A stretch of 64,000 nucleotides of DNA from a virus, in the IMG/VR virus record IMGVR_UViG_3300030451_003654, positions 22,861 through 86,860 of that record, one strand, 5' to 3'. This document shows positions 26,361 to 49,822 of this stretch, one piece after another. Each line of letters opens with the position of its first letter. Positions within the stretch are counted from its first letter, which is position 1. A program made the translations under genes and the position numbers. The notes beneath the pieces were generated by a model that was not told where the DNA came from, made no database searches, and saw only the letters and a list, made by a program, of their open reading frames with translations.

Positions 26361-27668
26361 TCAAGATAGGTTAGTAATCTTTCCTTGTGCTTTCAAGAAT
26401 GTACAAACAACTTCACCAATGGTTCGGTACATACCCTTGTTTCTAAGTCCATCAACCGAGAATGGGTCGCCCGAATCAATACCTGTTTCAAAGTATTCAG
26501 TTGGCTTCAAAGTAGCAAAGTGAATATGGTCTGTATCAAGAATGAAAATATCACTCAATCCACTACCTGTTCCTGTGCTTCCCATTTCCTTACAAGGAAT
26601 AATAGGAATGTCATGATAAGTAGCAACCTTAAATCCAACTTCTCTACCCTTTACACCTTTAATACCATTTACAGTAGGTAGTACTTCAGTTCTTCCCATG
26701 AATCTTTCTTGAGATTGTAGAAGTTCTCCCAATGCTTGAATTGTATCATATCCTGTTAGAATAACCTTTGGAGAAGCACCACGAATTTGCAATTCTCTTA
26801 GAGCAGTATTTAGCAAGTTAAGAGTTAGTGGTCTTCTTGTTGTAGCATCAGCAGAAGAATCTACAAATGCACCCATCCAAGCATTATTAGCCGCAACTGT
26901 TCTATCTTTTCCATATAGAGTCTTCATTTCTGTTGGTAGAGCACCTGCAAATAGATTTCCGCCATCAGCAGCCTCTAATTCTGTCTTGTTAGTTACAATT
27001 TCATATAGAGATTTTAGGTTGTTTGTTCCAACATAATTTCCTGAACCATCAGTCTTAGATTCCAATGGAGTTAGAAGCATATGATTCATCATTTCAGCGT
27101 GTGTAACACCAACTTCTTCTCTATAAGCAGCCATAATATCACCAATTCCATCATCAATCTTTGCCATTGCAGCAGCCAATTCAGAAACTTCAAATTGATG
27201 TGCAATAGTTTTAGGAGAAACATATAGTGTTTCATACTTTGGTGCAATTGGGGCAAATGCAGTTGCATCGTTAGTAGTAAATGATGCGTTTTCAGCAACA
27301 CCACCAATCAAATCTTCTGTTAGAGAACCTTGATTTGTACCACCTGTAATATTAAGAATATCTCCACTACCACCAATTGCTCTTTCAATCATGACTCTCC
27401 AGCCGCTTGACTGATATGGCTTCTTTGGTAGCATAGCGAATGCATTAATTTCACGGTTTAGCATAGACCAAACTTTTTGTCCATATACTAAATTATATAG
27501 AGCCTGATTGCTTTGTGAAAATGCACCACTACTTGAATCAGTATGCAATCCTCTTGTTACTCCAACGCCTCCCGATTGTCCTGTTGATGCTTTCAAAAGA
27601 CTATTACCACCAAAAGAACCGTAGGTTGCTCTTTCTAAATCTGCTATTGTTCTAATTTTTAAACTCAT
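26361..27668 (-). CDS. Major capsid protein (HK97 fold)
   Basis: Follows the prohead protease; YGQKVWSMLN, LPKKP, PKVILT, YHDIPIIP, DIFILDT and QGKITNL motifs. Confidence 0.85.
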   Translation of the reverse strand: MSLKIRTIADLERATYGSFGGNSLLKASTGQSGGVGVTRGLHTDSSSGAFSQSNQALYNLVYGQKVWSMLNREINAFAMLPKKPYQSSGWRVMIERAIGGSGDILNITGGTNQGSLTEDLIGGVAENASFTTNDATAFAPIAPKYETLYVSPKTIAHQFEVSELAAAMAKIDDGIGDIMAAYREEVGVTHAEMMNHMLLTPLESKTDGSGNYVGTNNLKSLYEIVTNKTELEAADGGNLFAGALPTEMKTLYGKDRTVAANNAWMGAFVDSSADATTRRPLTLNLLNTALRELQIRGASPKVILTGYDTIQALGELLQSQERFMGRTEVLPTVNGIKGVKGREVGFKVATYHDIPIIPCKEMGSTGTGSGLSDIFILDTDHIHFATLKPTEYFETGIDSGDPFSVDGLRNKGMYRTIGEVVCTFLKAQGKITNLS

Positions 27669-27704
27669 ATTTTTCACTTCCTTTATTTTGTGATTCTAAT
27701 AGAA

Positions 27705-28970
27705 TCAGCCTTGTACCTCACTAACAAGGTCATTTAATTCTTCCCAAGACATTTCACTAATATTGTCCATCTTTGCGATTACATCATCAGATAGTGTTGA
27801 GGTTGTTGTTGCTTGTGTAACTTGCTTTGCAATTACAGCATTGTTTGATTCAAGAGATTTGCGAAGTTCAGCAAACTCGTTCTTTAGAGCAGCAACTTCA
27901 GCACTTGCATCATACTTTTCCTTAGCAATCATGTTTGCTTCAGCCTGTAATTCAGCATTGTATCTTGCTTCAAATTCATTCTTAATCAAATCATATGCTC
28001 TTGCTTCTTCCTTTTCAGCCTTAAATTGTGCATATGCCTTTGCGATGTTTTCTTCGCTTAGGTCAAGAGTATCAATACTATTACCCTTGCGAGCAATAAA
28101 TTCACTATACTCAGCGTCAAATCTTCCTGTTAGGTTAGATTCTCCCATTTTTTGTCCTGTTGCGTTGTGTCCATATACAGTAGATTCAGCCGCTTTTGCT
28201 TCCTTATCTTCTTCCATATTTTCTTCATCATCTTCAGCCTTGTAAGACATGGATTCTTCATCATCCATATTTTCTTCATCATCAGCCATATTTTCTTCAT
28301 CCATAGCCATTTCTTCAACTTCGCTATCATCCTTCAAAATCATTTGATTTCGTAGTTGAGCAACAATGTCTTCAAACTCGCCTAATGCTTTACTAATTTC
28401 ATCAGTCATTTTTTCACTTCCTTTATTTTTATCTTCCTTTACAATTTCAAATTTTGCTTCAGGGTTTATTCCCTCTTCACAAATTGTAATCTCATGGAGT
28501 TCCAATTTATCTATTTCTTTGTATGTACCAATATCAGGGTCATGGACATTATGCTTATGCATGGCTTGTCCACCAATACTAAAAGAGCGAAGTTTGCCTT
28601 TCCTAATATCTCTTGCAACCTCTTTCGCTTTTTCAATGTCGTTCCTCATTTTAATAACTACAAAGAATCCTGTATCATCGCAACCTGTCTTTAACAAATT
28701 ACCTTTTGTGTCTGTGTAGGAATCAATTACTTCTCCTACTTGTACATTTGAATGAGTAATCATTACATTTTTATAATCACTCTTCATGAATTTTTCGGCT
28801 GCTTCGGCTAAAGCATCTAATGTAATTAGGTCGTTCTGTTTATCTACTACATCAACAGAAGCATATCCAGCGATAACCAAATCTTTTCCTGTTCCTTTTA
28901 GAATTGCTAATTCAGAACCTGAAGTATGATGATTACCTAACCTAATAGGTTTAACCTGCAAAGAAGCCAT
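27705..28970 (-). CDS. HK97-type prohead protease fused to acidic/coiled-coil scaffold
   Basis: IAGYAS..VVDKQND, catalytic-type H (ITHSN) and S (SFSIGG), EITICEEGINP; C-terminal D/E/M-rich and coiled-coil region. Confidence 0.9.
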   Translation of the reverse strand: MASLQVKPIRLGNHHTSGSELAILKGTGKDLVIAGYASVDVVDKQNDLITLDALAEAAEKFMKSDYKNVMITHSNVQVGEVIDSYTDTKGNLLKTGCDDTGFFVVIKMRNDIEKAKEVARDIRKGKLRSFSIGGQAMHKHNVHDPDIGTYKEIDKLELHEITICEEGINPEAKFEIVKEDKNKGSEKMTDEISKALGEFEDIVAQLRNQMILKDDSEVEEMAMDEENMADDEENMDDEESMSYKAEDDEENMEEDKEAKAAESTVYGHNATGQKMGESNLTGRFDAEYSEFIARKGNSIDTLDLSEENIAKAYAQFKAEKEEARAYDLIKNEFEARYNAELQAEANMIAKEKYDASAEVAALKNEFAELRKSLESNNAVIAKQVTQATTTSTLSDDVIAKMDNISEMSWEELNDLVSEVQG

Positions 28971-29011: not shown

Positions 29012-31519
29012 TTATTCGTTAGAAAATGTAATACTTCTATATTTATCTTGATTAATATCCCATAACCCTTCATCACTATCTTTATCAGTTGGTTTAGTTT
29101 CATAACCTGTCCATGCTACCCACTTATCTTCATTCATTATTGGTACTACTCTAATATGAAATTTACCTTGATACATTTTACCATCTAATATATACTCATG
29201 ATAACCATCTCTTTGAGCACCTAATTCTATTTTCCCTTCATCTAACATTTTATGTTTATCAGGTTCTTCATCTATTTCGGCTAAATATTTTGTAGCCTTA
29301 CCAAACAATTCATAAATATCTTCAGTATTTTCTTGTTCTATTCTCCAACTAAATGTTTTACCCTTAGCAGTATAAATAAAATTTAAATCACCATCTTCTC
29401 TTTTCCATACCTCGTATGTATCTGAATCTTTTTCTTCATCTTTTTTTATAAAATCAGATTCAGGTAATTTAACTAATGTTTTTTCATCATGGTAGAATGT
29501 CTTTCTATTACTATTATATAATACACCAAAGGCTTCTCCTCTTTCTTTAATAAAATTAAATAATCCTTTTTCTAAATTAGTATCAGCAAATACTCTTTTA
29601 ATTATATCAGGTGCTTTTTGTTTTACCTTTCTAATTAAATCTACTTTACTAATCTCACCTTCATTAACTATTTCAGAAACAATTGACATTAACTTACCGC
29701 TATCTTTTTTGTATATAGAAGTTAATTCGTCTTTCCATAAATCAATATCTATCATAGCATTTTTAGCCATTAGATTATCTTGATAAAATCCTGATAATAC
29801 AAACCCATCGGTATCAAGAGTAGTATTTAATTCTACTACACCATGTATATTATCTGTAATTGAATATGATTTTTTAAGTGCTTCTATATTATAATCTGAT
29901 GCTGATTTTTTATTATCCTTTGATAAAAATTCTAAAGTAATAATTTTTTCAGGTTCTGTAACTTCAGGCTTTTCAATAACCTTAGCACTATATACTGAAA
30001 ATCCTGTCTTTGTTTTCTTTACTTCATCAACCTTAACTCTTATAATTTTACCAACTTCTGATTTAATTTTAGTATTAAGTGCTTTACCTACAACTAAGTA
30101 ATCTCTTTTATCATGTCTTTTTACAGGTTTAACTTCTTCATCGCCAATTGGACCTGCACCTAATGTATAACTAAATGTACCATTTTTATTTTTTCTTACT
30201 TCTAATACAAGTAAATCTAAATCTACAAACTTTTTCCATTTAACCCATTTAGGATTTTTCTTCTTCCCTACAATGTATGAGGACTTAGCATCTTTAATCA
30301 TCACACCTTCTGATGTAGGATTATTCATAATTTCTTTAGCATACTCTTCTATTTCTTCTAAGGAGTCAGCCATTCTTGTATTAGATTTACTTGGGAATTG
30401 TAGGTATTTATCTGATAACTTAGTAAATTCTCCCATTAGTAATTTTAATCTTTCTTCAAGTTTATTTTTCCAAATGTGTTCTCCATTTAATCTTAGAATA
30501 TCAAATACATGAACCCTTAACTCATAATTACTATCATTATTTTTTGAATTAATAAATGATATTGTATCGGCTCTATGTAGTGGTTCATCATCTTCATACA
30601 AAACAACCTCAGCATCTAATATACATTTAGGGAAATCTTCGTCTTGCATAATTTTAATTTGTTTATCAAACTTACCTGTAATATCTCTATTATTAAATGA
30701 ATATACTTTAATTTCTTTTGTTTTATGTATTTGTATTCTCATACCGTCATACTTTTCCTGTACTACATATTCTCCTGTAAAACCTTTTATTTCTTTCATA
30801 TCATCTATTTCAAAAATACGGTACATAGGTTTGTTAGGTACAATAAATTCATTTAAAGTATCTTTATCTTCTTTTAAAATTCTTTTAGTATCAGTTAATT
30901 CTTGCCATTCAGCAGGACTATGTTCACTTGTATATACTTCATACAATAATTCTCTTGCCGCTTGCATTTTAGATTTTAACCTTTTAACATTTACTTCTTC
31001 ACCATAGTTTTCTTGTAGCCATTCATAGATTTCTCCATCTGTTAAATCTAAACCTACAAATCCTTCAGTAAATGTATCTTCTAATTTACCAAAATCTTTC
31101 CAATTATCTAATGCACCACGACCTGTTCTATATACCCAATGTAAAAATATAGCATATAGTTGTTTATTCTCTAATAACTTCTTAGGTAATTCTGAACCAT
31201 ACTTTTTTCTGAATGGGTCTTTAGAGAAAGACTTTTCATCTTGTATTGTTTTTAGATTTTCATAAATTCTTTTAGCCTTTGCACCTTGCGGGTCTTTAGA
31301 TTCTTGGCTAAATAATAATGTTTCAGACATTTTATCTCTAAGTAAATCACCAATTGGTTGAGGACTATCCCAACTTTGTTGTATTTCTTCTACAACAGTT
31401 TCCCATTCATCTTTGTAATCTTTTGGTCTTTCTCTCGCACTTAAATATGCTACTCTTACTTTATCATAAAGTAGCCTTAAAGACCTTGATAAAGGGTCTA
31501 TTCTTCCCGCAACAGGCAT
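29012..31519 (-). CDS. lig: ATP-dependent DNA ligase with N-terminal extension and C-terminal LigD-phosphoesterase-like domain
   Basis: Motif I EKYDG, III LDAE, IIIa VFDIL, IV EGVMIK, V WVKWKK, then OB fold; C-terminal DEGKIELG...HEYILDG...GKFH. Confidence 0.85.
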   Translation of the reverse strand: MPVAGRIDPLSRSLRLLYDKVRVAYLSARERPKDYKDEWETVVEEIQQSWDSPQPIGDLLRDKMSETLLFSQESKDPQGAKAKRIYENLKTIQDEKSFSKDPFRKKYGSELPKKLLENKQLYAIFLHWVYRTGRGALDNWKDFGKLEDTFTEGFVGLDLTDGEIYEWLQENYGEEVNVKRLKSKMQAARELLYEVYTSEHSPAEWQELTDTKRILKEDKDTLNEFIVPNKPMYRIFEIDDMKEIKGFTGEYVVQEKYDGMRIQIHKTKEIKVYSFNNRDITGKFDKQIKIMQDEDFPKCILDAEVVLYEDDEPLHRADTISFINSKNNDSNYELRVHVFDILRLNGEHIWKNKLEERLKLLMGEFTKLSDKYLQFPSKSNTRMADSLEEIEEYAKEIMNNPTSEGVMIKDAKSSYIVGKKKNPKWVKWKKFVDLDLLVLEVRKNKNGTFSYTLGAGPIGDEEVKPVKRHDKRDYLVVGKALNTKIKSEVGKIIRVKVDEVKKTKTGFSVYSAKVIEKPEVTEPEKIITLEFLSKDNKKSASDYNIEALKKSYSITDNIHGVVELNTTLDTDGFVLSGFYQDNLMAKNAMIDIDLWKDELTSIYKKDSGKLMSIVSEIVNEGEISKVDLIRKVKQKAPDIIKRVFADTNLEKGLFNFIKERGEAFGVLYNSNRKTFYHDEKTLVKLPESDFIKKDEEKDSDTYEVWKREDGDLNFIYTAKGKTFSWRIEQENTEDIYELFGKATKYLAEIDEEPDKHKMLDEGKIELGAQRDGYHEYILDGKMYQGKFHIRVVPIMNEDKWVAWTGYETKPTDKDSDEGLWDINQDKYRSITFSNE

Positions 31520-32065: not shown

Positions 32066-32293
32066 TTACTCACCACTCATTTTTACTACTAATTCGTCTA
32101 TTTCCTTCCAATCCATCTTTGCAATTGTATCAGCACTTGGTACTCTACTTGCTGTTTGAATTGATGGTTTCATTCCTTCTACTTTAACAAGACCTGACTT
32201 TAGTAAAACATTATCAGCATTAAATACTGTTGTTTCTAAGGTCTTGATTCTATCTACTAATTCTTTTAATAATAATGTTAATTCTTCATCCAT
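32066..32293 (-). CDS. Small protein with scaffold-like C-terminus
   Basis: C-terminal DTIAKMDWKEIDELV resembles the protease-scaffold end DVIAKM...MSWEELNDLV. Confidence 0.65.
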   Translation of the reverse strand: MDEELTLLLKELVDRIKTLETTVFNADNVLLKSGLVKVEGMKPSIQTASRVPSADTIAKMDWKEIDELVVKMSGE

Positions 32294-35031: not shown

Positions 35032-36660
35032 TTAACCAACTCTCCTTTCTGTTCTTCTATCAACATTGTTATTTGCTGCTTCTTTAGGTAATCCCATATT
35101 TCTATTAGGTGGACCGACACTCATTGAGGGTTTATTTCTTGTTTGTCCTCCACCTTGCCCTAATAAATTCTGTTCTGCTAATTGTCCTAATTGACTCGCA
35201 TCAATATCTGTTCCTGCATATGGGTCAGTTTCTAATTTTTTATCAGGTTGCTTTTCACCCATAGGTTTTTCTTCTTCTTTTGGCGGAGGCTTTGAATAAA
35301 TAAAGTTTCCATCTTCATCCATATCTACTTCAAATCCTAAATTCTTAATTTGAGTAGCAAGGTTAATTTCAATTTCTCTCCTTCTTAATTCGGCTACATT
35401 ATCTTCTTCTTCAGAACGAAGTAGAATTAAATTCCAATCAGTAATACCAAATTGTTTTAACAAGAATGGGAATAAATATTGATTATATACATTTTGCGCT
35501 AATTCAACAGAACGATTAGTTACAAGAATTTGCATACCCTCGTTATTTAAACCACCGCTTGTAGATGTATCTCCTTGAAAGATTTTACTTACACCATAGA
35601 AAGCACCAATTCTATCTCTCAAATCATCTTTTACATTTATGTAATCCATTTCTTTAAGAGTATTCATAAATTGTACCCATTCAATACTACCTTTACTACC
35701 GCCATCTGTTTCAATACCCATAATAGGAATATAATGTGGGTCTTTCTCTAACTTCTCTTTAACTCCTTTCCAATACTTTACAAGAGATTCCATGTTATTT
35801 GTTTGTACTGCAAGAATACCTCTTGGTGCTCTTGCTTTTGTATAAGAAGTATTTACATAATTTTCCATAGCAATTAATGTAGTAATATGACTCCATAGAG
35901 TTAGAATAGGTGAAAAACCATAAAGTCTTGAAGGGTTATACTTACTCAAGTGCATAACTTCTCCCTCTACAAAGTATTGGTCTTTACCGTGTACTCTATT
36001 TATATAATGTATAGGGTGTAATTTAGAACCACATTCGGGGCAACTTGCTAATGGGTCTGTTTCAAAAATCTCTCTATGTGTTAAACAAGTATAATGAGAA
36101 TTTCCTCTATTACCTTCTTCATCAACATCTATATACATTGTTAATGGGTCGCCTCTATAAATTTCTTTTATTTTATGTAGGGCTACACAACCTTCGTTAT
36201 CTAAGTAATATTCTTTTACTAAAATTAAGAAAGCATCATCAGCAATATTCAAATCAGCCTCTATTTCTTTTAATACATCAATAAATTTTTGCTCAGAACT
36301 ATTTACATACCCATTAAAGAATTTTTCAGCATAAATTTTTTGTTGTTGTGATGGTGCTCTTAAACTCTTACTACCACAATTTCTACAAACATCTGTTTCC
36401 TTTTCATGCTTTGTACCGCAATCATTACATATTTTAAAGAAAGATTTATTCCATTCAAAACCTCTTCTGAATATTTCAGTCTTTAATTGTGTAATACATG
36501 TCCTAACAATAGTAGATTGATTAGCAACATCATATAATACAGGTCCAATAATATGTTGTACATTTCTTTTTTCCTGTATTCCTAAATTATAAACTTCTTT
36601 GGCAAGTGGATTAGGGGTTTTTCTACGAACAAATTTCCCTAAGTAATCTCTTAATCCCAT
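35032..36660 (-). CDS. Portal protein with two Zn-ribbon insertions
   Basis: EVMHLS...LYGFSPI, APRGIL, IGAFYGVS motifs; CNDCG...CRNCG and CLTH...CPECG; downstream of TerL. Confidence 0.85.
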   Translation of the reverse strand: MGLRDYLGKFVRRKTPNPLAKEVYNLGIQEKRNVQHIIGPVLYDVANQSTIVRTCITQLKTEIFRRGFEWNKSFFKICNDCGTKHEKETDVCRNCGSKSLRAPSQQQKIYAEKFFNGYVNSSEQKFIDVLKEIEADLNIADDAFLILVKEYYLDNEGCVALHKIKEIYRGDPLTMYIDVDEEGNRGNSHYTCLTHREIFETDPLASCPECGSKLHPIHYINRVHGKDQYFVEGEVMHLSKYNPSRLYGFSPILTLWSHITTLIAMENYVNTSYTKARAPRGILAVQTNNMESLVKYWKGVKEKLEKDPHYIPIMGIETDGGSKGSIEWVQFMNTLKEMDYINVKDDLRDRIGAFYGVSKIFQGDTSTSGGLNNEGMQILVTNRSVELAQNVYNQYLFPFLLKQFGITDWNLILLRSEEEDNVAELRRREIEINLATQIKNLGFEVDMDEDGNFIYSKPPPKEEEKPMGEKQPDKKLETDPYAGTDIDASQLGQLAEQNLLGQGGGQTRNKPSMSVGPPNRNMGLPKEAANNNVDRRTERRVG

Positions 36661-38060
36661 CAGACCACCCCACTTTCCATACTATCCATCAATTGCATCT
36701 TACAATTATCATGGTATTTAACAACTACTTCGGGGTCTATATCATATTTTTCAAATTCTTTAACGCCTTGACCTCTTGAATCCTTCCAATTCTCATATTT
36801 AATTAGTTTAAATATTTCCTGTAATCGGGGTTTAGCCCATTCTTCTCTCTTAAAATTTTTCTTGATTCTAATCGCCTCTTGAATTAATCTACCCTGTGTT
36901 TGTTTCATTCTAAGATGTGGTATGCACTTTTCTAAAATTGTTGTGATGTCGTCTTGACTGTAAAAATTTAACCTGTGTTGGCTTCTACTATTTTCTCCTA
37001 CTTTTTGGTCTAAGTGTAATCTCCCACATTTTAATTCCTTTTCTAATTCTTGGAAAAATGCTTTACCTCTTTTACCCGTAGCAATCATTCCTACTCTTGG
37101 TGCTAAAGAAGAATCCATTGTAATGTAGCCATCGGAATCAATAAATCCCGCTACATAGGAATATAAATCTTTCTTAATTAAATGTTTCACTAAGTAGTAC
37201 TCATTATCTACTTTAGTAGCACCTATCTTCATTAACATTTTTGAAATAGATTGGGGTGTTGAAATTTTAGAATGTCCTTTAGATAATCTGGAGTGAATTT
37301 CATTAGAAGATAATCCTTGATTATTACAAATAATTTCTCTTACACTCTTTTCAATCATTTCTTTCTTAGATTTTCTTATAGATTGATGAGGTATATCTTT
37401 TAATAATTTTCTTAATTCATTTCTACTTTCTCTTAAAATAATATAATTATTTGAATATTGTGTGCCGTAATCTAATGATTTCATTTCTAAATCGCTTTCC
37501 CACATCTTACAACATAATTCTATGATACTCTTTCTTGTTTCACCATCTTTAATATTATGCAACTTTTGTATTTGTGAAGGGTTATAACCTAATCTTTTAA
37601 ATCCTGATTGATATGGTTTTAACCAATAAATTGTATCTAAAGATTTTTGTAAATATTCTTCATACGCAGTAATTAAATGGTCTATACCTTTTGAAATTTT
37701 AATCTTTTCTTCACCTTTAAAATTTCTTCTCATATCTCTTAATTCCTTAACTAAATCAGGAATATTCTTATTAGATACAATAGGTTCTACGGGAAGTTGT
37801 TGAATATAATCACTTGCTTCAGTTAAATTAATTTGTAATGTTTTAGAAATATCTTTTAGAATATCTACCTCATTACCGTATTGAGTGGATAACCATTGAC
37901 CTACATTACTCTTGTTAAACTGTTCTTTAATTTTATCTTTAACAGGTTTAACTTCTTGGTCTAACATTCTTTTTTCATCTTCTACTCTTTTAATTTCTTG
38001 AACATCTCGTTCTAATTCTTCTATATCAATATCATCATCCTGTTTAAAGATTAATACCAT
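36660..38060 (-). CDS. LAGLIDADG endonuclease-domain protein with long N-terminal helical/wHTH region
   Basis: YVAGFIDSDG motif with downstream LAGLIDADG-type pattern (...PHLRMK); RBS GGAGGTG before ATG 38060. Confidence 0.8.
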   Translation of the reverse strand: MVLIFKQDDDIDIEELERDVQEIKRVEDEKRMLDQEVKPVKDKIKEQFNKSNVGQWLSTQYGNEVDILKDISKTLQINLTEASDYIQQLPVEPIVSNKNIPDLVKELRDMRRNFKGEEKIKISKGIDHLITAYEEYLQKSLDTIYWLKPYQSGFKRLGYNPSQIQKLHNIKDGETRKSIIELCCKMWESDLEMKSLDYGTQYSNNYIILRESRNELRKLLKDIPHQSIRKSKKEMIEKSVREIICNNQGLSSNEIHSRLSKGHSKISTPQSISKMLMKIGATKVDNEYYLVKHLIKKDLYSYVAGFIDSDGYITMDSSLAPRVGMIATGKRGKAFFQELEKELKCGRLHLDQKVGENSRSQHRLNFYSQDDITTILEKCIPHLRMKQTQGRLIQEAIRIKKNFKREEWAKPRLQEIFKLIKYENWKDSRGQGVKEFEKYDIDPEVVVKYHDNCKMQLMDSMESGVV

Positions 38061-39462
38061 AAAAAGCACCTCCCTTTGTTGGTGTAGTAGGGGTTGAACT
38101 AAACAGACTACCACTATCTATATCTAAAAATGTATCGGAAAAAGTCTTTGTTGCATAATTGGCTAAAGCAAGAGCAATTACTATATCATCATGTGCGCCT
38201 ACACCTTCAATTTTACCATGTGCATTAATTCCAAATGCGCCTAATTCTTGAGTAATCATATTAGTTACAGACTTAGATGCTTCATTTTGCATAGGTAAAA
38301 CTATCTTCCCATTATCAATATTCATTTGTAAATTTAATATAATTTCTTCCTTTTTCTTTCTACTCATAGTAAATTCTCTAACAGGAAAATCTGAAATATT
38401 TTTCAATTCCATAGCAAAAGCCTTAGCAAATGTATTTGTTTCAATCATGACTACTTCAGGCTTATACCTTCTACACAATTCCATTATGTGTTGTATGTGT
38501 TCTCTAAAGTCAAGTCCTTTTGCCCTAAACATATGAACCACTTGTTTATTCATGTTTTCATCAACCTCTAAGACCATCATTACAGTATAATCCCCATTTG
38601 CCGAAATAGCAGGGTCATATCCTATATAATATTGAAAACCCTCTCTCGCAACGCTCTCAAGCGAAGCATAGGGATTCTTACACGCTTTAATTGCATCAGG
38701 TTGAAAAAGCATAGTATTTGTACTGATAGGTACGCAAAGATATTCTCTTGTAAATTTAGCCGAGCCTATTTCTACCTTTCTCTCTTCAAGCATTTCAAGA
38801 CTCCAACGATTAGCCCATAAAGCCGTTCCATCTTGCTTAATTGCAGGGTATCTTGAAACGGTATATGCGGGGTTTTCTTCTAACTGTACAAATATATCTG
38901 TATATGTAAAGGGTGTTCCGACCATTCTCAAAGAAGCCGTATGGTGAAGTGTAGGAATCATATCTCCCCAAAACCAATCTGTAACTCTTTGAATAGCGGT
39001 CATACTAAATTCTTTCAAAGGGTCGTCAATAATAATTTCTTGAGGGTGCAATCCACGAATCTGAGAACCTACTGAACGCTCTAATATCTCATTACCATTT
39101 GTTAAACGCATAGCCCCAACTGCCCAACCGCCTCTCGGTTTGAATCTTTTTAATTGTGGGATATTAGTGAACATTCTATCTATGTCTTTCATATGTACCA
39201 TTGTTTGTTTATGATTAGAAGAAATGTAAAGCATTTGATATGGTGGTTCTTGAAAACATAATTGATAAACACACCATGAATGAAAGAAAACAGATTTTCC
39301 GTGGTCTCTTGAACAAATAATAACTGTCCTTGAAGTATTATTTACAAGGTCTAACCATTCCTCATGAAAGTCGGCTAACTCATACCCTAATACCTTTTCA
39401 AAAAAATAAGGAAAATTTCCTTTGGACATCTTCAAATCCATTTCTGTTAAAAAATCATCCAT
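38044..39462 (-). CDS. terL: Terminase large subunit
   Basis: Walker A SRDHGKS, Walker B IIIDD, motif III VGTP, nuclease GYDPA...HDDIVIALALA. Confidence 0.92.
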   Translation of the reverse strand: MDDFLTEMDLKMSKGNFPYFFEKVLGYELADFHEEWLDLVNNTSRTVIICSRDHGKSVFFHSWCVYQLCFQEPPYQMLYISSNHKQTMVHMKDIDRMFTNIPQLKRFKPRGGWAVGAMRLTNGNEILERSVGSQIRGLHPQEIIIDDPLKEFSMTAIQRVTDWFWGDMIPTLHHTASLRMVGTPFTYTDIFVQLEENPAYTVSRYPAIKQDGTALWANRWSLEMLEERKVEIGSAKFTREYLCVPISTNTMLFQPDAIKACKNPYASLESVAREGFQYYIGYDPAISANGDYTVMMVLEVDENMNKQVVHMFRAKGLDFREHIQHIMELCRRYKPEVVMIETNTFAKAFAMELKNISDFPVREFTMSRKKKEEIILNLQMNIDNGKIVLPMQNEASKSVTNMITQELGAFGINAHGKIEGVGAHDDIVIALALANYATKTFSDTFLDIDSGSLFSSTPTTPTKGGAFYGINL

Positions 39463-39467
39463 TAGAA

Positions 39468-40103
39468 TCACCTACACTTAAGAATATCCCATGCCTTTTG
39501 CATAGCCTTATCTTCTTTCATACTTTCAGGAATATAAATAGCATAAGTTCTATTTTTACCTTTTAGTACATCATAATGTCTTTGTGGAATATCAGGATGT
39601 TTTTCTTCAGCGTTAAGGAATATCTCAAAACCCTCACTTGTATATTTTGTTAATCTATTTTCGCTATCATTTGATAAATCAAGAACAATAGGTATTTTTC
39701 TTTGATTTGCTAAATCTTTTATGAAAGGCATTCTTTTCTCATCTAATATTTTATTAAAGCCTCTACCTCTATAATCTACTCCATACATTTCAGGGTGTTT
39801 AGGCATACCGCCTACTGTAAAACTACCTGCATCACCAATAACATCATCTAATGCTACTGCACCTACCTTAGCAACATAATAACCAAACTCATCAACTATA
39901 ATCCAAATATAATTTTCAGTACCGCTAAATGTAAAGGGGCTATCCTTTCTATTTCTTGGTCTTCTATTTGCTTTCTTCCACCTATTACCTATTTCTATAA
40001 ATCTTTCTTCTGAAATTGGACCAACTATTGTAAAGGTTTCACCATTATTTTGGAAAGTTTCTCCCGCAGGTACAGGATATACTTCATCTCTTTCTCCCTT
40101 CAC
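39468..40103 (-). CDS. GNAT-like acetyltransferase with C-terminal KAWDILK tag
   Basis: Motif A-like DYRGRGFN and Y..EGF; tag-like C-terminus. Confidence 0.5.
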   Translation of the reverse strand: MKGERDEVYPVPAGETFQNNGETFTIVGPISEERFIEIGNRWKKANRRPRNRKDSPFTFSGTENYIWIIVDEFGYYVAKVGAVALDDVIGDAGSFTVGGMPKHPEMYGVDYRGRGFNKILDEKRMPFIKDLANQRKIPIVLDLSNDSENRLTKYTSEGFEIFLNAEEKHPDIPQRHYDVLKGKNRTYAIYIPESMKEDKAMQKAWDILKCR

Positions 40104-42676: not shown

Positions 42677-44796
42677 TACTCTTCCTCCTCAGTTGATGAT
42701 TCTCTTAAAAATTTCTTAGTAATTAAATACTCTCTAATACCTGCTGCTTGTCCTCTAACTTTTAATCCTTGACTTCTATATTTACCTGTGGTATCATCGG
42801 CAATATTTTGAATTGTTGATGCTAACTGAGCCTTTATAGCATCTTCTACATCTAAAAGAATTTCATCAATAAGACCTTTTGTTTCTGAAAAATCTTGTCT
42901 TGTACCAAACCAATTTGTAGAGTTATCTTCAAAATCACCATCTTCAATAAAATCTCTCATAGAATTTAGTCTATCTTCTTGAGATTCTGTTGAATCATTT
43001 TCACTAAAGTAATCTTCTATATTATCAAAAAATGTATCTATCAATGTTCTCATGGAAACATTATATGGAGAGTACTTATCTCTTTCTAATGTCATTTTAA
43101 TAATAGTCATCAATGCTCTCATTGATTTAATAAAATTATCTTCTGAAGGGTCTGCAAATAATTTACCTGTTGGTAGGTATTGTTTAAATCCTCCCGTTGG
43201 TACTATTTGTAAAGCCTTATCTTTTCCTTCTAATCCTAAATCTATGTAACTATTGTACATTAATGCTAAAATATTTCTTTCAAAACGATTCATAGGAGTT
43301 TCTAACATATCAATAAAATCTGATAGCCCCTTTTCAGTATCAAATGAATACGCTAAATCTACAAAGTCAGCACCTGTATTACCCCTAAAGTTAAAGTATT
43401 CTTTCATTGATTGTCTATTAGAAGTGATTTCATCTTGTTCTTCCTTTGGAAGTTTTCTAAATTCAGCCTCCATCTTGTTCTTTCTTCTAATATCATCTTC
43501 GTATCTTTTAAGCCAAGTAGCATTCTCGTTCTTAACTTGAGATTTAATCCAATCAATTAGTTTTGCTCTTTGAGTATAATGTCTTTCATACTTTCTACTA
43601 CCTTTAGGTGCTTCTTCTAATTGAACTCTTGAAAGAATTTCATAGCCACCGATGTTAATGTCTGTATTAGATTCTTCCATTCTTCTATTAATATAACTAA
43701 TAGTCCAATCGTGAAGATAATCTTTTTGTCTTTGCGTACCTCTATCTCCCCTTCTTCTAACTTCTACATCTCTAACCAATTGTGTAATACTTTGTGATTT
43801 ATATCCTAAGTCATAAACAATACCTATACTTTGATTTCTGATATTTTTAAATATACCTTCGGCTGAATTAGTCTTTTGTAATTTTTCTACTAATTCTTTA
43901 AATTGACCTTCAGTAAGTCCTGCAATTTTATTACCGAGTCTTTCATGAGTAAGTAATTTTTCTGATGATGCTTCTCCTACTTCCATTGTTTTAGGGTCGG
44001 CTACTCTTCTTGTTCTTTCTTTTGTTCCTTCTCTTCTAACTCTTTCGCTTGCTCTACCGTATTTATCTTCATCTTTACCTGATACTACTGTAATATCTTT
44101 CATACCCTGTGCAGAATATTTGTATTTATTAGTAAAGAAATCAAATACTCTTTTATCAATACCACCTACTACATCAGGTTCTAATCTTAATTTAAATACA
44201 TTTTGGAAAAATTCAGGATTAGGATTTTGTATTGATTCTAATCCCATTTTATTATACCATCTTTTATCTCCACTTTTAAATTGACCTTTCGTACTTTCAT
44301 CTATAAATTTATACAAAGCGTAAAGTAATTCAACAGATGGTTCATTAACCATCATATCATAAAGAGCATTCAATGTTTCAATTGTCCACTCTTGATTTGT
44401 CTTACCATCGGGCGAAACAATCTCACCATATGTTTGACCCATAGGTGTATTCTCACTTGCTAAAGAAATATCAGATGTTCTTTTCAAACCTTCATAATGT
44501 TTTAATCTCTCTTCAATAATCTTTAGACTTTCTTCTCTTGTATCAGCAACCTTAGTCCTTCTACCTGTAATCATTTGTGTAACTACACTATCTTCTAAAT
44601 CATTACCTTCCTTAGAAGAATTAAACCCTTCTCTAAGTTTAGTAATTACATTATCTAAATATTTATCTTGTAAATCTTGATTTGTAACTTCAGCAATCTC
44701 TTCTTTAGAAGGTAATTTACCTGTTCTAAATCTTGAGATTAAAGCCCCTACTGATATAGGTGGCTTATCCGCTTTCAATAAAGAAATCCAAGACAT
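42676..44796 (-). CDS. WxxLLK-tagged large hypothetical protein
   Basis: Begins MSWISLLK. Confidence 0.75.
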   Translation of the reverse strand: MSWISLLKADKPPISVGALISRFRTGKLPSKEEIAEVTNQDLQDKYLDNVITKLREGFNSSKEGNDLEDSVVTQMITGRRTKVADTREESLKIIEERLKHYEGLKRTSDISLASENTPMGQTYGEIVSPDGKTNQEWTIETLNALYDMMVNEPSVELLYALYKFIDESTKGQFKSGDKRWYNKMGLESIQNPNPEFFQNVFKLRLEPDVVGGIDKRVFDFFTNKYKYSAQGMKDITVVSGKDEDKYGRASERVRREGTKERTRRVADPKTMEVGEASSEKLLTHERLGNKIAGLTEGQFKELVEKLQKTNSAEGIFKNIRNQSIGIVYDLGYKSQSITQLVRDVEVRRRGDRGTQRQKDYLHDWTISYINRRMEESNTDINIGGYEILSRVQLEEAPKGSRKYERHYTQRAKLIDWIKSQVKNENATWLKRYEDDIRRKNKMEAEFRKLPKEEQDEITSNRQSMKEYFNFRGNTGADFVDLAYSFDTEKGLSDFIDMLETPMNRFERNILALMYNSYIDLGLEGKDKALQIVPTGGFKQYLPTGKLFADPSEDNFIKSMRALMTIIKMTLERDKYSPYNVSMRTLIDTFFDNIEDYFSENDSTESQEDRLNSMRDFIEDGDFEDNSTNWFGTRQDFSETKGLIDEILLDVEDAIKAQLASTIQNIADDTTGKYRSQGLKVRGQAAGIREYLITKKFLRESSTEEEE

Positions 44797-44805
44797 ATGA
44801 CAACC

Positions 44806-45012
44806 TCACAGTTGAGATTGTACAAATGCTACTACTACCAAAATAGAAGGTATTGCAATAAGAATTTGTTTCTTATATTGCTTAAGTTTAGCGAGAATCT
44901 TATCAACCTTTTTCTCACTAATAATTCCTAAATCTTCAGCAATATCGAGAGCATCTTCTACTAAATCTTCTACATCTTCTATTGTTTCTTTAATTTCTTC
45001 TTCCTTTACCAT
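44806..45012 (-). CDS. Small C-terminally anchored membrane protein
   Basis: C-terminal ILIAIPSILVVVAFV; RBS GGTGA. Confidence 0.6.
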   Translation of the reverse strand: MVKEEEIKETIEDVEDLVEDALDIAEDLGIISEKKVDKILAKLKQYKKQILIAIPSILVVVAFVQSQL

Positions 45013-45013
45013 T

Positions 45014-45376
45014 TTATTCACCTTTAATTGTGTCCATAGTATTACTATGAGTATTATTTTCTGCTTCCATAGCCATTTGATGTCTATGTTGTGCTTCTTC
45101 TAAACCTCTTCGGTGTTCATATTCAGCAGGTACTTCTGTAATTTCATTAGCCTGTTCCGCTTCCCATGTTCTTAAAAGAGTATTAAATGCGGGTGCAGCA
45201 ATTCCACCAATAATAGCGATTAATGCAATAAACCCATCAAGATTCTGCAATACTACATCAGGCTTCATAATACCTGTATAAACAACTGCACCTGAAGCCA
45301 AAAGCCACAAATAAATAGCAGGTAAAACAGTTTTATTTACTAATTTGTCGTTAAATGTATTTTTATCTTTACCCAT
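45014..45376 (-). CDS. Two-TM membrane protein (holin-like)
   Basis: Two hydrophobic segments followed by a charged tail. Confidence 0.55.
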   Translation of the reverse strand: MGKDKNTFNDKLVNKTVLPAIYLWLLASGAVVYTGIMKPDVVLQNLDGFIALIAIIGGIAAPAFNTLLRTWEAEQANEITEVPAEYEHRRGLEEAQHRHQMAMEAENNTHSNTMDTIKGE

Positions 45377-45377
45377 T

Positions 45378-45623
45378 TTACATCACCTGTGTTCCAACCA
45401 TAATAGACGATACTATCCCTATTAATCCTAATATTACTTTCTTAATTAAATCAAACCCTTCCCCGATAATTTGGTTCTGTGCATCCATTGATGTTGCTAA
45501 CTCCGTTAATCTCGTACTTAACTCTAACTGATTATCCGCTAATTTATCTAAAAGTAATTCATGTCTATCAACCTTTGTTTCAATATTATCTAATCTAATA
45601 TCTTGAACATCGTCTTTAGCCAT
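45378..45623 (-). CDS. Coiled-coil protein with C-terminal TM segment
   Basis: Heptad pattern followed by VILGLIGIVSSIMVG. Confidence 0.6.
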   Translation of the reverse strand: MAKDDVQDIRLDNIETKVDRHELLLDKLADNQLELSTRLTELATSMDAQNQIIGEGFDLIKKVILGLIGIVSSIMVGTQVM

Positions 45624-45627
45624 TGTA

Positions 45628-45927
45628 TTACTCACCTAAATCATAATAATAATCTTCTGACCTCATTGTATTAGGGTCAAAACTATCTATTTTATCTGAA
45701 TGCCAACCAAATAAATAATTTCTAATTGCTCTTGGTTTTTGACTCATTCCTAATACTCCTAACTTTTTTAGAACATGTTGATTAACATCTCTTACAGAAG
45801 TTTTACCATCTACTGATGACATAAATTCATCAATAACATCTCTAACATTTTTAGGTGGTACAGGTTTCTTTCTCTTTAATATATTTGCTTCTTCCATATC
45901 TGTTTTTAATATTTCTTTCCAACTCAT
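45628..45927 (-). CDS. WxxILK-tagged small protein
   Basis: Begins MSWKEILK. Confidence 0.75.
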   Translation of the reverse strand: MSWKEILKTDMEEANILKRKKPVPPKNVRDVIDEFMSSVDGKTSVRDVNQHVLKKLGVLGMSQKPRAIRNYLFGWHSDKIDSFDPNTMRSEDYYYDLGE

Positions 45928-46586
45928 GTTAATCTCTCCGCTACACTATCTCTAATCTCAGTCCATACTTCAGGATATTTTTCTATTAAAACTTTTTGTA
46001 TAATTTCAACTTGTTGAACAACAACAGTTTCCTCTCTTTTATGAACCAATTGTCCTTTAAATTCTAACATATACTTTAGAGATTCTCTAATTTCTTTTGC
46101 TAATTTTGTTAATGAATCAATTTGTTTTGTGCCTAAATCAGTATTTTCTAATAACTCATTTACTTTATTTTGTAATGTAGTTACATTTCCTGATAATATA
46201 TCTATTTCGTTTAAATCCATTCTCGCTACCTCCATAGCACCGTGTTGTTGTACAATTGGTTTCAAATGTTTTTTCATATGTAATTGTACTTGGGCTTCTG
46301 AACATGATAACATTTCAGCAACTTCTGATATTTTTAATTCTCCTTCGGCTATTCTAATTTCTATTTCGGCTCTATTAGAATGTGTACATAGTGGACAAGA
46401 TGGGTTTGAGTTATCATGATAACTACCTAAATGGTTTTGCATGTGCTTTTTAGAAGTACCTGCCCACCAATTATTTTGTTTATCTAATTCATCACAAGTA
46501 ATATTTCCAGCAAGAATATCCTCTTCTAAACCATCACGGTCTTCGTGTTGGCATAATTTACAAGACTTTCTTACCTTTCTTGTCAT
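45924..46586 (-). CDS. Putative terminase small subunit (two Zn-binding HTH-like repeats plus coiled coil)
   Basis: CKLC...HMQNH and CPLC...HMKKH repeats; helical C-terminus; upstream of TerL. Confidence 0.5.
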   Translation of the reverse strand: MTRKVRKSCKLCQHEDRDGLEEDILAGNITCDELDKQNNWWAGTSKKHMQNHLGSYHDNSNPSCPLCTHSNRAEIEIRIAEGELKISEVAEMLSCSEAQVQLHMKKHLKPIVQQHGAMEVARMDLNEIDILSGNVTTLQNKVNELLENTDLGTKQIDSLTKLAKEIRESLKYMLEFKGQLVHKREETVVVQQVEIIQKVLIEKYPEVWTEIRDSVAERLT

Positions 46587-46590
46587 AAAA

Positions 46591-46779
46591 TCAATCCCTT
46601 GCTAAGAAAGCACTATTACCGCCCTTTCTACTTTTACTTCTCTTCTGTGGTATCTTTTTATTTTCTTCTGCTAATTGTCTAAAATCTTCAGCCGTCAATG
46701 AACCATCTTTATTTTTATCAAGATGCTTCTTCTGTTTATCAGTCAATTTTTTATTTTTAATTACAGTCCACCATTTCAT
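46591..46779 (-). CDS. Tagged EF-hand-like mini-protein
   Basis: ATG after RBS GGTGA gives MKWWTVIK; DKNKDGSLTAED EF-hand-like loop. Confidence 0.65.
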   Translation of the reverse strand: MKWWTVIKNKKLTDKQKKHLDKNKDGSLTAEDFRQLAEENKKIPQKRSKSRKGGNSAFLARD

Positions 46780-46783
46780 ATTA

Positions 46784-48049
46784 TCACCTTCTAAATCCAA
46801 CGCAACCACTATATTGTTTTTTAGGGCATTGCTTTGCTAATTTAATGGGAATATCACTACTTCCTAATTGTTTTGCTAAAGGACAATCAGGTTTAAAACA
46901 CCTACTCTTCTTTTGTAAAATTTCTTCTAATGATGAAACTTGACTACCAAATTTTTCTACTTGCAATTCACCTTGTTGTTTTAAAATTAATCCAGGTTTT
47001 GCTATACCTTCTTTTGCTTTCGGGGTTTCAAACTCATTTATTTCTTGTCCTAACACATTTAACACCTCTTTAATTGTTTTATTTAATGCAATATTATTTC
47101 TTGGAAATCTTAATTGAATATTTTTAATCTTTTCAATACCTTCAACTCTATCATAACCTTTTGCAAAATTTAATAATTGTGCTTCTTCAGCATTTCTAAT
47201 TGCATAAGATTCATTTGTAAATGCAGCATTTAATCTATCTTTCATAGGTGCTCTTGATTTACCTGCTGGATAGATACTTCTATTATTCAAAACTTCTATT
47301 ACCTTTTCTTGTACGCTTTTAATTTGGGCTAACTGTCTTGGACCTGCTGAATTATTAAATACTGCAATTCTGTTTCCATCACCCATTTTAATTTTATCTA
47401 CACCTTTTAGTGCTTTTCTTGCAATTGCTAACAAACCATTCTTACCGTATTCAGTTTCACCTTCACCTGTAATTGCTTGCCATAGTGGAGGTTTTGCTTT
47501 ACCTTTCTTTTCGTTATACCAATCAGAATTTGTTTGTGCAAATTGCCCTTTGAAACCCTGTTTATTTTCTTTCATATAGGTTACATATTCATTATATGCT
47601 TCTGTTCTATAATGTCCAAATACTTGTCCTCTTTCTACGATAGGGTCATCATCAGTTTCAGTAAAATCAATAACGGTAGTAAAGGGAATATTTCTTGGAT
47701 TCCATTTAGGATTTTGTAAAACTGCTAATAAATCTTCAATATCTTCTTCTAACTTATTTCTGTGTTCTGTTTCTATAACATCTCCATCAAAAATTTCTGT
47801 TAATGATTCTAATAAAGCACCTAAACCTTCTGTGCTTCTTGCTTGGTCTCTCGCATAAGTAGCATCACCGTGATTTAATACTGTATCTAAAACAGTATCG
47901 GGTTTTGCTTCTCCAACTTTACCTCCAACAATTCCCCATTCTGTACCTTTATTCCATCTTTTTTTCCATGAATTAAAAGCACCTTTAATCTCACCAATGT
48001 TTAAGCCCTGCTCAACATTATCAAAATCTGTACCTTCAAATTTACTCAT
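46784..48049 (-). CDS. Hypothetical protein with C-terminal Cys cluster
   Basis: 421-aa ORF; ends with CFKPDC...CPKK...C after EEILQKK. Confidence 0.7.
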   Translation of the reverse strand: MSKFEGTDFDNVEQGLNIGEIKGAFNSWKKRWNKGTEWGIVGGKVGEAKPDTVLDTVLNHGDATYARDQARSTEGLGALLESLTEIFDGDVIETEHRNKLEEDIEDLLAVLQNPKWNPRNIPFTTVIDFTETDDDPIVERGQVFGHYRTEAYNEYVTYMKENKQGFKGQFAQTNSDWYNEKKGKAKPPLWQAITGEGETEYGKNGLLAIARKALKGVDKIKMGDGNRIAVFNNSAGPRQLAQIKSVQEKVIEVLNNRSIYPAGKSRAPMKDRLNAAFTNESYAIRNAEEAQLLNFAKGYDRVEGIEKIKNIQLRFPRNNIALNKTIKEVLNVLGQEINEFETPKAKEGIAKPGLILKQQGELQVEKFGSQVSSLEEILQKKSRCFKPDCPLAKQLGSSDIPIKLAKQCPKKQYSGCVGFRR

Positions 48050-49365
48050 TAATCATCACAACCGCAAGGTGTAGTTTTATCATTACATCTTTCACAAGGA
48101 GGTTTTTCACCATACATTATATTTGCTTCAGCAGGTCTAAAGCCCGCATTTGTTGTCATTCCTATTCCTGCTCTTTTAGATAATAAATCACGCCAACCGA
48201 ATTCTCCTGTATATTGGTCGTTAGATTTAAATTCTTCTTCAAACTTTCGTCTTTCTTCATCTGTCATTTCTCCTGCTTGTACTTGTGGTCTATCTCTTAT
48301 TTCTTGTGCTTGTTCTTCTGTTAGTTGGTCTGATACTTCAGGATTACTTTCAGCACTTTCTTGAAATTGTACTAATCTAATTTGAAATGCAAAACCTACA
48401 TTTCCTGTAAATTTCTTAACTAATTCTGTCATTTCAGACTTGGCATAAAGATTTTGTAAATTGTTTTTAACATTTCTTCTAACTTCGTTATTATTAATGT
48501 CGGCTTGTCCATCTCCGTCTAAATCAAAAATACTTTCTTCAGCATCATTAATTACATCATCTAAATATTCATCAACATTGTTAATTAAATTCTTAACATC
48601 CTTTTCAATCCTACTACCTAACGCTGTCCATTGGTCGTCAATAAATGATTGAGGTGGGTCAGCCATAAAATCAATTTCTTCCTCATCATCTTCATCTTCA
48701 TCTTCTCTATAAGATTCTTTGTCAAATAAATGTTGTTGTTTTGTATATGATGCATCAAATATTGCAGACATCATTTCTTCTGTAAATTTAAGTCCTGCAT
48801 CCACCATTCTATTATATCCTGATGAACCCATAATTCCTTGAATACTTCTTTCTGAATCTACAAATGATGCAGGAGGTGGACCTGTACCTCTATCTTTAGT
48901 AAGACTTGTTAAATAACCTTCAAGCATACCTTCAATATTCATCATAGCAATTTCCATACCAATACTTTGAATGTTTTTAGATGCCTTTGATTTCTTTTTA
49001 TCTATTCTTGCAAATCCTGGATTTTCAGGGTCTAAATTAATTGATGATTGTCCAAAAGCACCAACCTTACCTAAATATTCATCAAAGGTATTCATTATGG
49101 TTCTAAACCAATTTACAAGACCCACCTTTTGTAGTCTTATTTCATCAGGTAAAGGTTCATCAGGATTTTCTTCTCTAAAGTCAGCAACATTTTGTCTAAT
49201 ATTACCATCTTTATCTCTAATTATAGATTGTTTATCTCTTCTGAATGGCTTTTGTTTAAACCCATAACCGTCAATAAATACTGAACCATCGGGTTTTTGA
49301 AATCTATCACCGAGTTTGATTTTGCGTTTATCATCATCATCTTTTAGTATATTTCTCCAACTCAT
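48049..49365 (-). CDS. WxxILK-tagged acidic protein
   Basis: MSWRNILK; internal GWRDLLSK; C-terminal CERC...CGC. Confidence 0.75.
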   Translation of the reverse strand: MSWRNILKDDDDKRKIKLGDRFQKPDGSVFIDGYGFKQKPFRRDKQSIIRDKDGNIRQNVADFREENPDEPLPDEIRLQKVGLVNWFRTIMNTFDEYLGKVGAFGQSSINLDPENPGFARIDKKKSKASKNIQSIGMEIAMMNIEGMLEGYLTSLTKDRGTGPPPASFVDSERSIQGIMGSSGYNRMVDAGLKFTEEMMSAIFDASYTKQQHLFDKESYREDEDEDDEEEIDFMADPPQSFIDDQWTALGSRIEKDVKNLINNVDEYLDDVINDAEESIFDLDGDGQADINNNEVRRNVKNNLQNLYAKSEMTELVKKFTGNVGFAFQIRLVQFQESAESNPEVSDQLTEEQAQEIRDRPQVQAGEMTDEERRKFEEEFKSNDQYTGEFGWRDLLSKRAGIGMTTNAGFRPAEANIMYGEKPPCERCNDKTTPCGCDD

Positions 49366-49517
49366 TCTTCGTTCCTCCTTAGAGCCTTAACTAAAGAATC
49401 AATGACATCTAAGGGCATACCTAACTTTTTACCTTCTTTGGTGAATGCTTTTAATGCTGTTTCCCAATCAGTAATATCTTCTTCGGTAATGCTCTTTAGA
49501 TACTTTTCCCATGTCAT
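49362..49517 (-). CDS. Tagged 51-aa protein (not in ORF track)
   Basis: MTWEKYLKSITEEDITDWETALKAF...; TAATG and ATGA overlaps with both neighbours. Confidence 0.7.
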   Translation of the reverse strand: MTWEKYLKSITEEDITDWETALKAFTKEGKKLGMPLDVIDSLVKALRRNEE

Positions 49518-49768
49518 TATTGTAACTCTCCCTTCTGAATCATTTGTTTAAATAACATTTCTACACTCTTACTAAATTTTGTAAAATCTTCAAGAATATC
49601 CTTAGCCTCATCAACATCAAAAGGCATATTAGTTGATGCAGGGTCATCTCCAAAAGATTCTCTTGCTAACGCTTCCATTTCTTCTATATTGTCCTTCAGT
49701 CTTGCTATAAAATCAACAATACTGTTAAGTCCTGTATATTGTTTTTGTAAGGTATCTTCCCATGACAT
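49517..49768 (-). CDS. Tagged small protein
   Basis: Begins MSWEDTLQK. Confidence 0.7.
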   Translation of the reverse strand: MSWEDTLQKQYTGLNSIVDFIARLKDNIEEMEALARESFGDDPASTNMPFDVDEAKDILEDFTKFSKSVEMLFKQMIQKGELQ

Positions 49769-49822
49769 GTAATCGCCTTTGAATACTTTATTTTTTTACT
49801 ACTATATATTAATTACTTAAGA

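Follow-up and report, generated by a model that had tools for sequence, protein, structure and literature searches.

Protein choice for the interior of tailed-virus heads is understood in very few systems (for instance T4, P1 and the ejection proteins of P22), and to our knowledge nothing is known of head-cargo selection in archaeal viruses. Here we analyse a virus from the ocean with an archaeal host group, through the right-hand 64 kb of its 86,860-base IMG/VR record (IMGVR_UViG_3300030451_003654, positions 22,861 to 86,860; this whole stretch is the window, and all coordinates are its own). Our subjects are the C-terminal Trp helix of its fused prohead protease-scaffold (27705-28970, minus strand), a small protein with the same end, and an array of short N-terminal tags on proteins encoded upstream of the head genes. 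The original prediction held that the tags copy the scaffold helix and so mimic its binding to the capsid protein. The reading that we favour, at about an even chance, is a composite one, in which scaffold and small protein share an ancient docking module and the tags are protease-cut leaders, not copies of the helix.

The C-terminal end of an S78 protease or of a scaffold targets the shell interior in well-known phages: the P22 scaffold ends in a helix-turn-helix, lambda C and Nu3 share a C-terminal end between protease and scaffold, and the HK97 protease gp4 is said to carry a C-terminal encapsidation tail (reportedly the work of Duda et al. in 2013). The likeness of our locus to these three comes from general knowledge of the phages, not from their sequences. 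In T4, the targeting leader is carried by further proteins beyond IPII and IPIII.

In herpesviruses, the protease-scaffold pUL26 and the separate scaffold pUL26.5 share a C-terminal end that binds the capsid protein (PMC4498786), and the original prediction had stated this precedent correctly as far as the source sets it out. Similarly, in our locus the protease is fused to a scaffold and a second, protease-less protein has the same C-terminal end; the two herpesvirus cuts, the R-site behind the protease and the M-site immediately ahead of the C-terminal peptide, have candidate counterparts at F-x-I-V-K178 and I-A-K382. Unlike in herpesviruses, the second protein comes from a separate gene of 75 codons, not from a nested frame, the protease is of the S78 type, and the candidate cut would follow Lys instead of Ala; both binding and cutting are putative here. 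For the tags, the T4 capsid targeting sequence (CTS) offers a parallel, a short N-terminal leader of about 10 residues on unrelated proteins encoded beside head genes and removed by the head protease (PMC9958956, PMC9024508), as would be the case here. However, the leader sequence appears to differ, about 25 carriers per genome stand against the few that these sources give for T4 (IPII, IPIII), and T4 uses its scaffold core (gp22) as receptor and cuts after Glu, where we propose Lys. Encapsulin cargo-loading peptides are likewise short terminal peptides on unrelated cargo, and they dock in a luminal pocket of an HK97-fold shell (PMC8229669), which is the mechanism that had been proposed for our tags; encapsulins, though, are described as having no scaffold, protease or genome, and the tag here is probably cut off. 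Phage P1 DarB also has an N-terminal signal, its first 30 residues being enough to send a reporter into the capsid (PMC9024508), but it is the one carrier described in that source, which states no scaffold likeness in what it says of the signal, against a family of 25 here. In the magrovirus literature on capsid or N-terminal features, covered non-exhaustively through titles and abstract openings and with supplements excluded, neither the tag nor the shared C-terminal module was found described; in the text of Philosof et al. 2017 the terms "N-terminal", "motif" and "internal" have 0 occurrences.

A C-terminal Trp module in scaffold and small protein

The 421-residue protease-scaffold combines both functions in a single polypeptide, according to its Pfam match (S78 domain PF04586 at residues 29-180, E 1.9e-10), its PHROG annotation as a head maturation protease and its AlphaFold2 (AF2) model, which predicts a protease core at about 21-164, long helices at 306-387 and then a C-terminal helix-turn-helix. 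The protein ends in ...MSWEELNDLVSEVQG (in longer form ...DDVIAKMDNISEMSWEELNDLVSEVQG). Conservation and the AF2 model delimit a C-terminal Trp module, M407-S-W409-EELNDLVSEVQ, at 27711-27752 on the minus strand, with the M407-S-W409 codons at 27744-27752. In the model, helix 409-420 begins exactly at the Trp and is preceded by a short helix at 395-402, with a predicted local distance difference test (pLDDT) score of 78-85 for the block, a range that includes the corresponding part of the small protein.

Conservation of this Trp in viruses that keep the tags had been set beforehand as a test. Within the best 120 homologues, which are 56-99% identical, the Trp lies in the last 25 residues of 119, the sole exception being a truncated record, and it is present in 44/44 IMG/VR loci that include the scaffold C-terminal end. 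At the neighbouring positions of these 119 proteins we find Leu (89) or Met (30) at -2, Ser (99) or Thr (20) at -1, Glu, Gln or Asp at +2, and Val, Ile or Leu at +3. A sister lineage with a scaffold of about 40% identity has M-[SDTG]-W-[DES]-[ED]-V-H-x-L-A in 79 of 80 loci; Met at -2 amounts to 100% there and to 61% of the distinct scaffold ends in the lineage of our genome. When the last 45 residues of 60 sequences from both lineages are aligned (alignment A3), only the Trp and one Lys about 27 residues upstream are invariant. More distant clusters, sampled by 116 long representatives, show the motif in 13 and a Tyr or Phe replacing the Trp in 2. The scaffold Trp motif is real and old, spans two virus lineages and is retained throughout the viruses that keep the tags.

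Two further observations concern the scaffold as a whole. Residues around 214-282 (window 28200-28330, minus strand) are strongly acidic, Met-rich and repetitive, with runs of D/E-E-N-M, and are predicted to be disordered. Among the distant relatives, P0147, a protein of 1232 residues, represents a much longer fused form, with the protease at 824-971 and an [ML]-[STDG]-W motif near its C-terminal end.

The small protein is encoded 3 kb upstream by an open reading frame (ORF) of 75 codons (32066-32293, minus strand) and ends in ...MDWKEIDELVVKMSGE (in longer form ...DTIAKMDWKEIDELVVKMSGE), with the W62 codon at 32108-32110 (minus strand). On re-reading the sequences, the C-terminal ends of both proteins are as they had been quoted, each with the Trp motif. 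AF2 predicts helices at 2-32, 54-58 and 62-72, the last beginning at the Trp; calling the module a C-terminal helix is reasonable, since the modelled helix starts at the Trp in scaffold and small protein alike. A long N-terminal helix, a floppy linker and a Trp module make up, in this prediction, the plan of a minimal scaffolding protein. The gene is conserved, with tblastn matches in 24 loci. The protein has no relative in Pfam, PHROGs or the PDB, where a sequence search with alignment A5 gave 0 hits, as did one with the protease-scaffold alignment A4; a search of the Atlas with the small protein returned unnamed viral clusters only.

Run as a regular expression over six frames of 127 loci from both lineages, the motif picks out two protein classes only, apart from 1 stray internal match: scaffolds (41 loci in this lineage and 79 in the sister lineage, with a few truncated copies besides) and proteins only 75-125 residues long (about 25 and 41 loci, respectively). 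In both classes it is placed at the C-terminal end, and the gene lies on the scaffold's strand. Moreover, the two ends change together. Position +4 is Asn or Asp and +7 is Val in the scaffold as well as in the small protein of this lineage, and His and Ala take these places in both proteins of the sister lineage; in one locus (L040), the ends of the two proteins are nearly identical. For 53 distinct scaffold/small-protein pairs, uncorrected for shared ancestry, we count 3.23 identities at W+1 to W+8 as compared with 2.56 +/- 0.12 after shuffling, a value that 0 of 2000 shuffles reach; taken by lineage, 114/2000 shuffles reach the observed value in this lineage, which is marginal, and 53/2000 do so in the sister lineage. 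Because the small protein has the scaffold's C-terminal module in both lineages and co-varies with it, its proposed role as an accessory mini-scaffold, or more generally as a separate scaffold or assembly protein, is supported at the level of sequence.

N-terminal tags in two lineages

The tags are a short N-terminal leader common to unrelated proteins encoded beside the head genes. In our genome, 25 copies of M-(x)-W-x-x-[IVL]-[LI]-[KRQ] form an array at 44796-61675 on the minus strand, the same strand as the head module and upstream of it. Of these, 23 directly follow the start codon, and the three examples given in the original prediction do begin ORFs, namely those that start at 60307, 45927 and 56219, of which the third uses GTG. 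One copy, K-K-S-W-E-N-I-I-K-R-K-K at about 53525 (minus strand), is internal to a protein of 283 residues, and another, I-S-W-K-D-I-L-K at about 52139 (minus strand), comes after ATT instead of the usual start codon, within the ORF 51732-52178. The best-kept positions are the Trp (25/25), +3 (Ile, Val or Leu in 24/25), +4 (Leu or Ile in 25/25) and +5 (Lys in 22/25); Asp or Glu occupies +2 in 17/25, while -1 is Ser or Thr in 13/25 and Met in 7/25. The Met of the tag is dictated by the start codon.

Five related records, among them one with a scaffold only 46% identical, all contain M-x-W-x-x-[IV]-L-K, with 12, 13, 9, 3 and 6 matches on the scaffold's strand and 0 on the opposite strand; a reversed control pattern gives 0 matches in the same records. 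In all 6 records, our genome included, the tagged genes share the strand of the head module and lie immediately upstream. Pfam and PHROGs return almost nothing for the tagged proteins, namely one weak match to DUF5754 and one PHROG of unknown function. Many of the tags are followed by Lys- and Arg-rich stretches, and the scaffold has the acidic disordered stretch mentioned above.

In the sister lineage, M-x-W-x-x-[IV]-L-K has matches in 0 of 5 long records, one of them complete. That this lineage is devoid of tags is nevertheless ruled out, as the same five records contain a leader of different form, P-F-[DN]-x-A-W-x-[LVFI]-L-K, on the scaffold's strand. In these five whole records, 16-21 leaders are N-terminal, with clear copies numbering about 7, 4, 0, 9 and 2-3 per record; 4 of the 5 thus have them, G007 being the one without a clear N-terminal leader. 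When the sister leaders are scored against the scaffold and small-protein ends of their own lineage, 47-65% of 2594 Trp windows reach the leader median, so that, by sequence, the sister leader is no more helix-like than random Trp windows and has nothing in common with the helix beyond the Trp. Common to the leaders of the two lineages is an aromatic residue with h-L-K after it, a feature that the scaffold helix lacks. Across the two lineages, the scaffold helix stays while the leader changes. As a separate observation, records G007-G010 (loci L152-L165) encode long proteins with internal copies of a Phe variant of the leader, such as G-E-P-M-D-I-A-F-R-L-L-K, whose positions are similar in all four.

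The sister form also occurs in our genome. A protein of 211 residues encoded beside the terminase has the C-terminal end K-A-W-D-I-L-K-C-R (39471-39497, minus strand), with a tag-profile score of 10.6 and the form and spacing of the sister leader (A-W-x-h-L-K). This end is conserved in 3 related records (L128, L130 and L129), and in L129 the reading frame continues beyond the tag into a Cys-rich domain of 75 residues. Tags can therefore occur where two domains meet, a position more in keeping with a cut site than with a docking helix at a terminus.

Likeness of tag and helix

In our lineage, tag and scaffold helix agree in register at Met (-2), Ser/Thr (-1), Trp, an acidic residue (+2) and Ile/Val (+3). 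To gauge this agreement, a profile built from the C-terminal ends of scaffold and small protein was used to score all Trp-centred windows of the genome at -1, +1, +2 and +3. Of 365 non-tag Trp windows, 3.3% reach the median score of the 25 tags, and 1.6% do so if position -1 is left out, the overall range for this genome being 1.4-3.3% of 364-365 windows. Two further genomes of the lineage show less likeness, with 5.4-8.0% reaching the median over -1 to +3. Over +4 to +7, 58% of the Trp windows reach the tag median, which is background level.

Two patterns were also counted, both picked after the data had been seen. The widened pattern M[STDNE]W.[EDK][LIVM] has 8 matches in the six frames of the window, 6 at ORF starts, 2 at the C-terminal ends of scaffold and small protein and none elsewhere, and the core [ST]W.[EDQ][ILV] has 9 in the six frames of the 86,860-base record, of which 6 are tags, 1 is the scaffold end and 2 are other sites. 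A full-length tag profile, run over 35,283 positions, had been expected to single out the scaffold end and failed to do so: its top 45 consist of tags, tag-like copies and about 20 unrelated sites, and the scaffold end lies outside them. Tag and helix thus agree over -2 to +3, not over the full length of the helix's conserved positions. Neither do they change together across related viruses, for in one subclade the scaffold residue at +3 has become Ala (W-N/A-E-A-H), yet its tags keep Ile or Val there, and in the sister lineage the same helix goes with different tags. The expected co-variation of scaffold C-terminus and tag consensus is therefore not borne out, and the claim that cargo tags copy or mimic the helix is weak, judged from a sequence likeness that is short, lineage-specific and not co-varying.

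Conserved Lys sites in the head proteins

Three Lys sites of the head proteins are conserved across both lineages: K26 of the major capsid protein (MCP), K178 at the end of the protease domain and K382 at the end of the coiled coil. The MCP (26361-27677, minus strand; SU10/HK97 type, Pfam PF17236, E 4.7e-11) is numbered from the ATG at 27668, and its junction L24-L-K26|A maps to 27591-27599 (minus strand); among 60 sequences from both lineages, K26 is invariant and L24 is kept in at least 90%. The end of the protease domain, F174-E-I176-V-K178|E (28437-28451, minus strand), is a candidate cut releasing protease from scaffold; F174, I176 and K178 are invariant in alignment A4 (48 sequences), and the sister lineage has EATF-x-ILK-ED in all 78 matches found across 80 loci. 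The third site, I380-A-K382 (27825-27833, minus strand), likewise a candidate release cut, precedes a low-confidence linker with pLDDT <50 at residues 383-391; K382 is invariant in A3, and I380 and K382 are each kept in at least 90% of A4. Both candidate sites, F174-x-I176-x-K178 and I380-x-K382, fall at predicted domain borders.

Scored with a tag profile anchored on Lys, the MCP junction ranks in the top 1.1-2.0% of 2,216 non-tag Lys windows of this genome; for the sister lineage the range is the top 0.7-4.2%. The protease-end site, T-F-x-I-L-K, follows the same pattern as the sister tag A-W-x-h-L-K. In the sister records, the expression [AST][WFY].[LIVFM]LK has 38 matches; besides the protease-end site, present in 5/5 records, they are leaders, several internal copies reading A-F-x-L-L-K and a small number of further sites. 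From these sites, we infer that the head protease cuts after Lys. Because h-L-K, the half of the tag that does not vary, matches conserved Lys junctions of head proteins, the tags are best read as removable leaders that this protease would cut.

Discussion

What can be said about the roles of the two signals? In our composite explanation, the last 27 or so residues of the scaffold would be an old docking module, consisting of a short helix, a turn and a helix that starts at the invariant Trp (M-S-W-E-E-[LIV]-N-x-L-V), and the small coiled-coil protein upstream, itself probably a separate scaffold or assembly protein, would end in the same module. Since both modules are kept and change together in two lineages, the two proteins most likely dock on the same procapsid receptor, which by analogy with herpesvirus pUL26/pUL26.5 may be the inner face of the capsid protein; the conserved I-x-K site upstream of the module would serve as release cut. 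A complex prediction between MCP (alignment A2, 60 rows) and the last 45 scaffold residues (A3), run without controls, gave scores of 0.00 and 0.20 where the mark was 0.32; it is evidence neither way. The tags, which share only [M]-[ST]-W-x-[ED]-[IV] with the helix and do so in this lineage only, would be removable leaders that the head protease recognises and cuts, much like the T4 CTS.

Several points weigh against this explanation. The co-variation of scaffold and small protein is uncorrected for shared ancestry and marginal within this lineage (114/2000), and the profile likeness to Lys sites falls off away from the MCP: the protease-end site reaches the top 3-13% in this genome and the top 10-21% in the sister lineage, and the I-A-K site the top 17-22% only, so that cut-site likeness is clear for the MCP junction alone. 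The sister-lineage rank of that last site is disregarded, as the loose expression used there had matched an unrelated place. Furthermore, the likeness of tag to helix within this lineage (1.4-8%) is not negligible, and the tags of the two lineages may dock in one pocket in different registers. Use of the helix's pocket by the tags is doubtful in our judgement, but it retains some weight because of this lineage-level likeness and because the Met at -2 is the ancestral scaffold residue.

It could thus be argued that the tag is after all a mimic, perhaps even a descendant, of the scaffold's coat-binding helix, and that it docks cargo in the same inner capsid pocket in the manner of encapsulin cargo peptides. 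The stretch M-[ST]-W-x-[ED]-[IV] is shared in register, few other Trp windows of the genome are as scaffold-like as the median tag, the widened pattern is confined within the window to ORF starts and the two C-terminal ends, the helix begins at the Trp, and the scaffold motif goes back further and is more widespread than the tags, in agreement with the proposed direction of copying. We nevertheless consider the mimic improbable. The most conserved half of the tag, L-K, is without counterpart in the helix, as are helix positions +4 to +8 in the tag; in 7/25 tags no residue separates Met and Trp, and an initiator Met is usually cleaved off when Ser or Thr follows it. Moreover, it is the small protein with which the scaffold co-varies; between the two lineages the tags change and the scaffold motif does not, and in the Ala subclade it is the scaffold that changed at +3 and the tags that kept Ile or Val. 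A hybrid is conceivable, in which the first half of the tag imitates the Trp start of the helix, so that cargo would compete with scaffold for the capsid-protein pocket, and the second half is a protease cut site that frees the cargo; we regard it as rather unlikely, too. If true, it would mean that a virus proper loads cargo in the way of encapsulins, each genome encoding about 25 cargo proteins that can stand in for one another.

The receptor need not be the capsid protein. The protease-scaffold itself could carry the tag into the head, with the tag held in the groove of the protease like a substrate or else lying on the acidic scaffold core, given that the tag end resembles the conserved Lys junctions, that the sister tag matches the protease-end pattern, that many tags are followed by basic stretches and the scaffold has a long acidic disordered stretch at 214-282, and that the T4 CTS is described as sending foreign proteins to the core (PMC9958956); with its modest profile likeness to the protease-end site (top 3-21%), this route appears unlikely to us. 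Finally, the resemblance might be due to chance and the tags unrelated to the capsid; they might, for instance, be leaders that serve a different viral machine, or signals in translation or stability. In keeping with this, 1.4-8% of random Trp windows are equally scaffold-like in a comparison made after the data had been seen, the sister lineage shows no likeness, and the tagged proteins are without known families. Such a view, however, is hard to reconcile with tagged genes on the head-module strand and directly upstream of it in 6/6 records of the lineage, with tag-like leaders on the scaffold's strand in 4/5 sister records, and with a tag end that matches the invariant MCP Lys junction in both lineages, and we deem it very unlikely.

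Our composite explanation takes apart two signals that had been merged, a C-terminal Trp module and a lineage-specific N-terminal leader. The former is a testable candidate for a shell-docking signal in a large group of marine viruses. On the question of one pocket, a natural swap experiment is offered by the sister lineage, where the same scaffold motif goes with another leader. If the leader does load proteins, it would make a small tag with which foreign proteins could be packed into shells of the HK97 type.

Other features of the head module

The remaining genes of the head module lie on the minus strand as well. The terminase (38044-39471) and the portal (35032-36660), the latter with weak zinc-ribbon matches at residues 54-98, have between them the gene of a protein of 484 residues (36660-38114, minus strand) with a weak match to an HNH-endonuclease PHROG at residues 318-446. 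The module further includes a protein of 837 residues and an ORF of 178/182 codons; Pfam and PHROGs return nothing for the proteins of 75, 182, 104 and 837 residues. Between portal and protease sits a ligase-like protein of 835 residues (29012-31519; Pfam PF01068, ATP-dependent DNA ligase, E 1.5e-28), which has neither tag nor Trp module. After the gene of the small protein, an ORF at 32064 (minus strand), whose ATG overlaps the last codons of the 75-codon ORF, begins with M-D-W-K-P-E, the third M-D-W within the head module, and has 18 tblastn matches in the loci.

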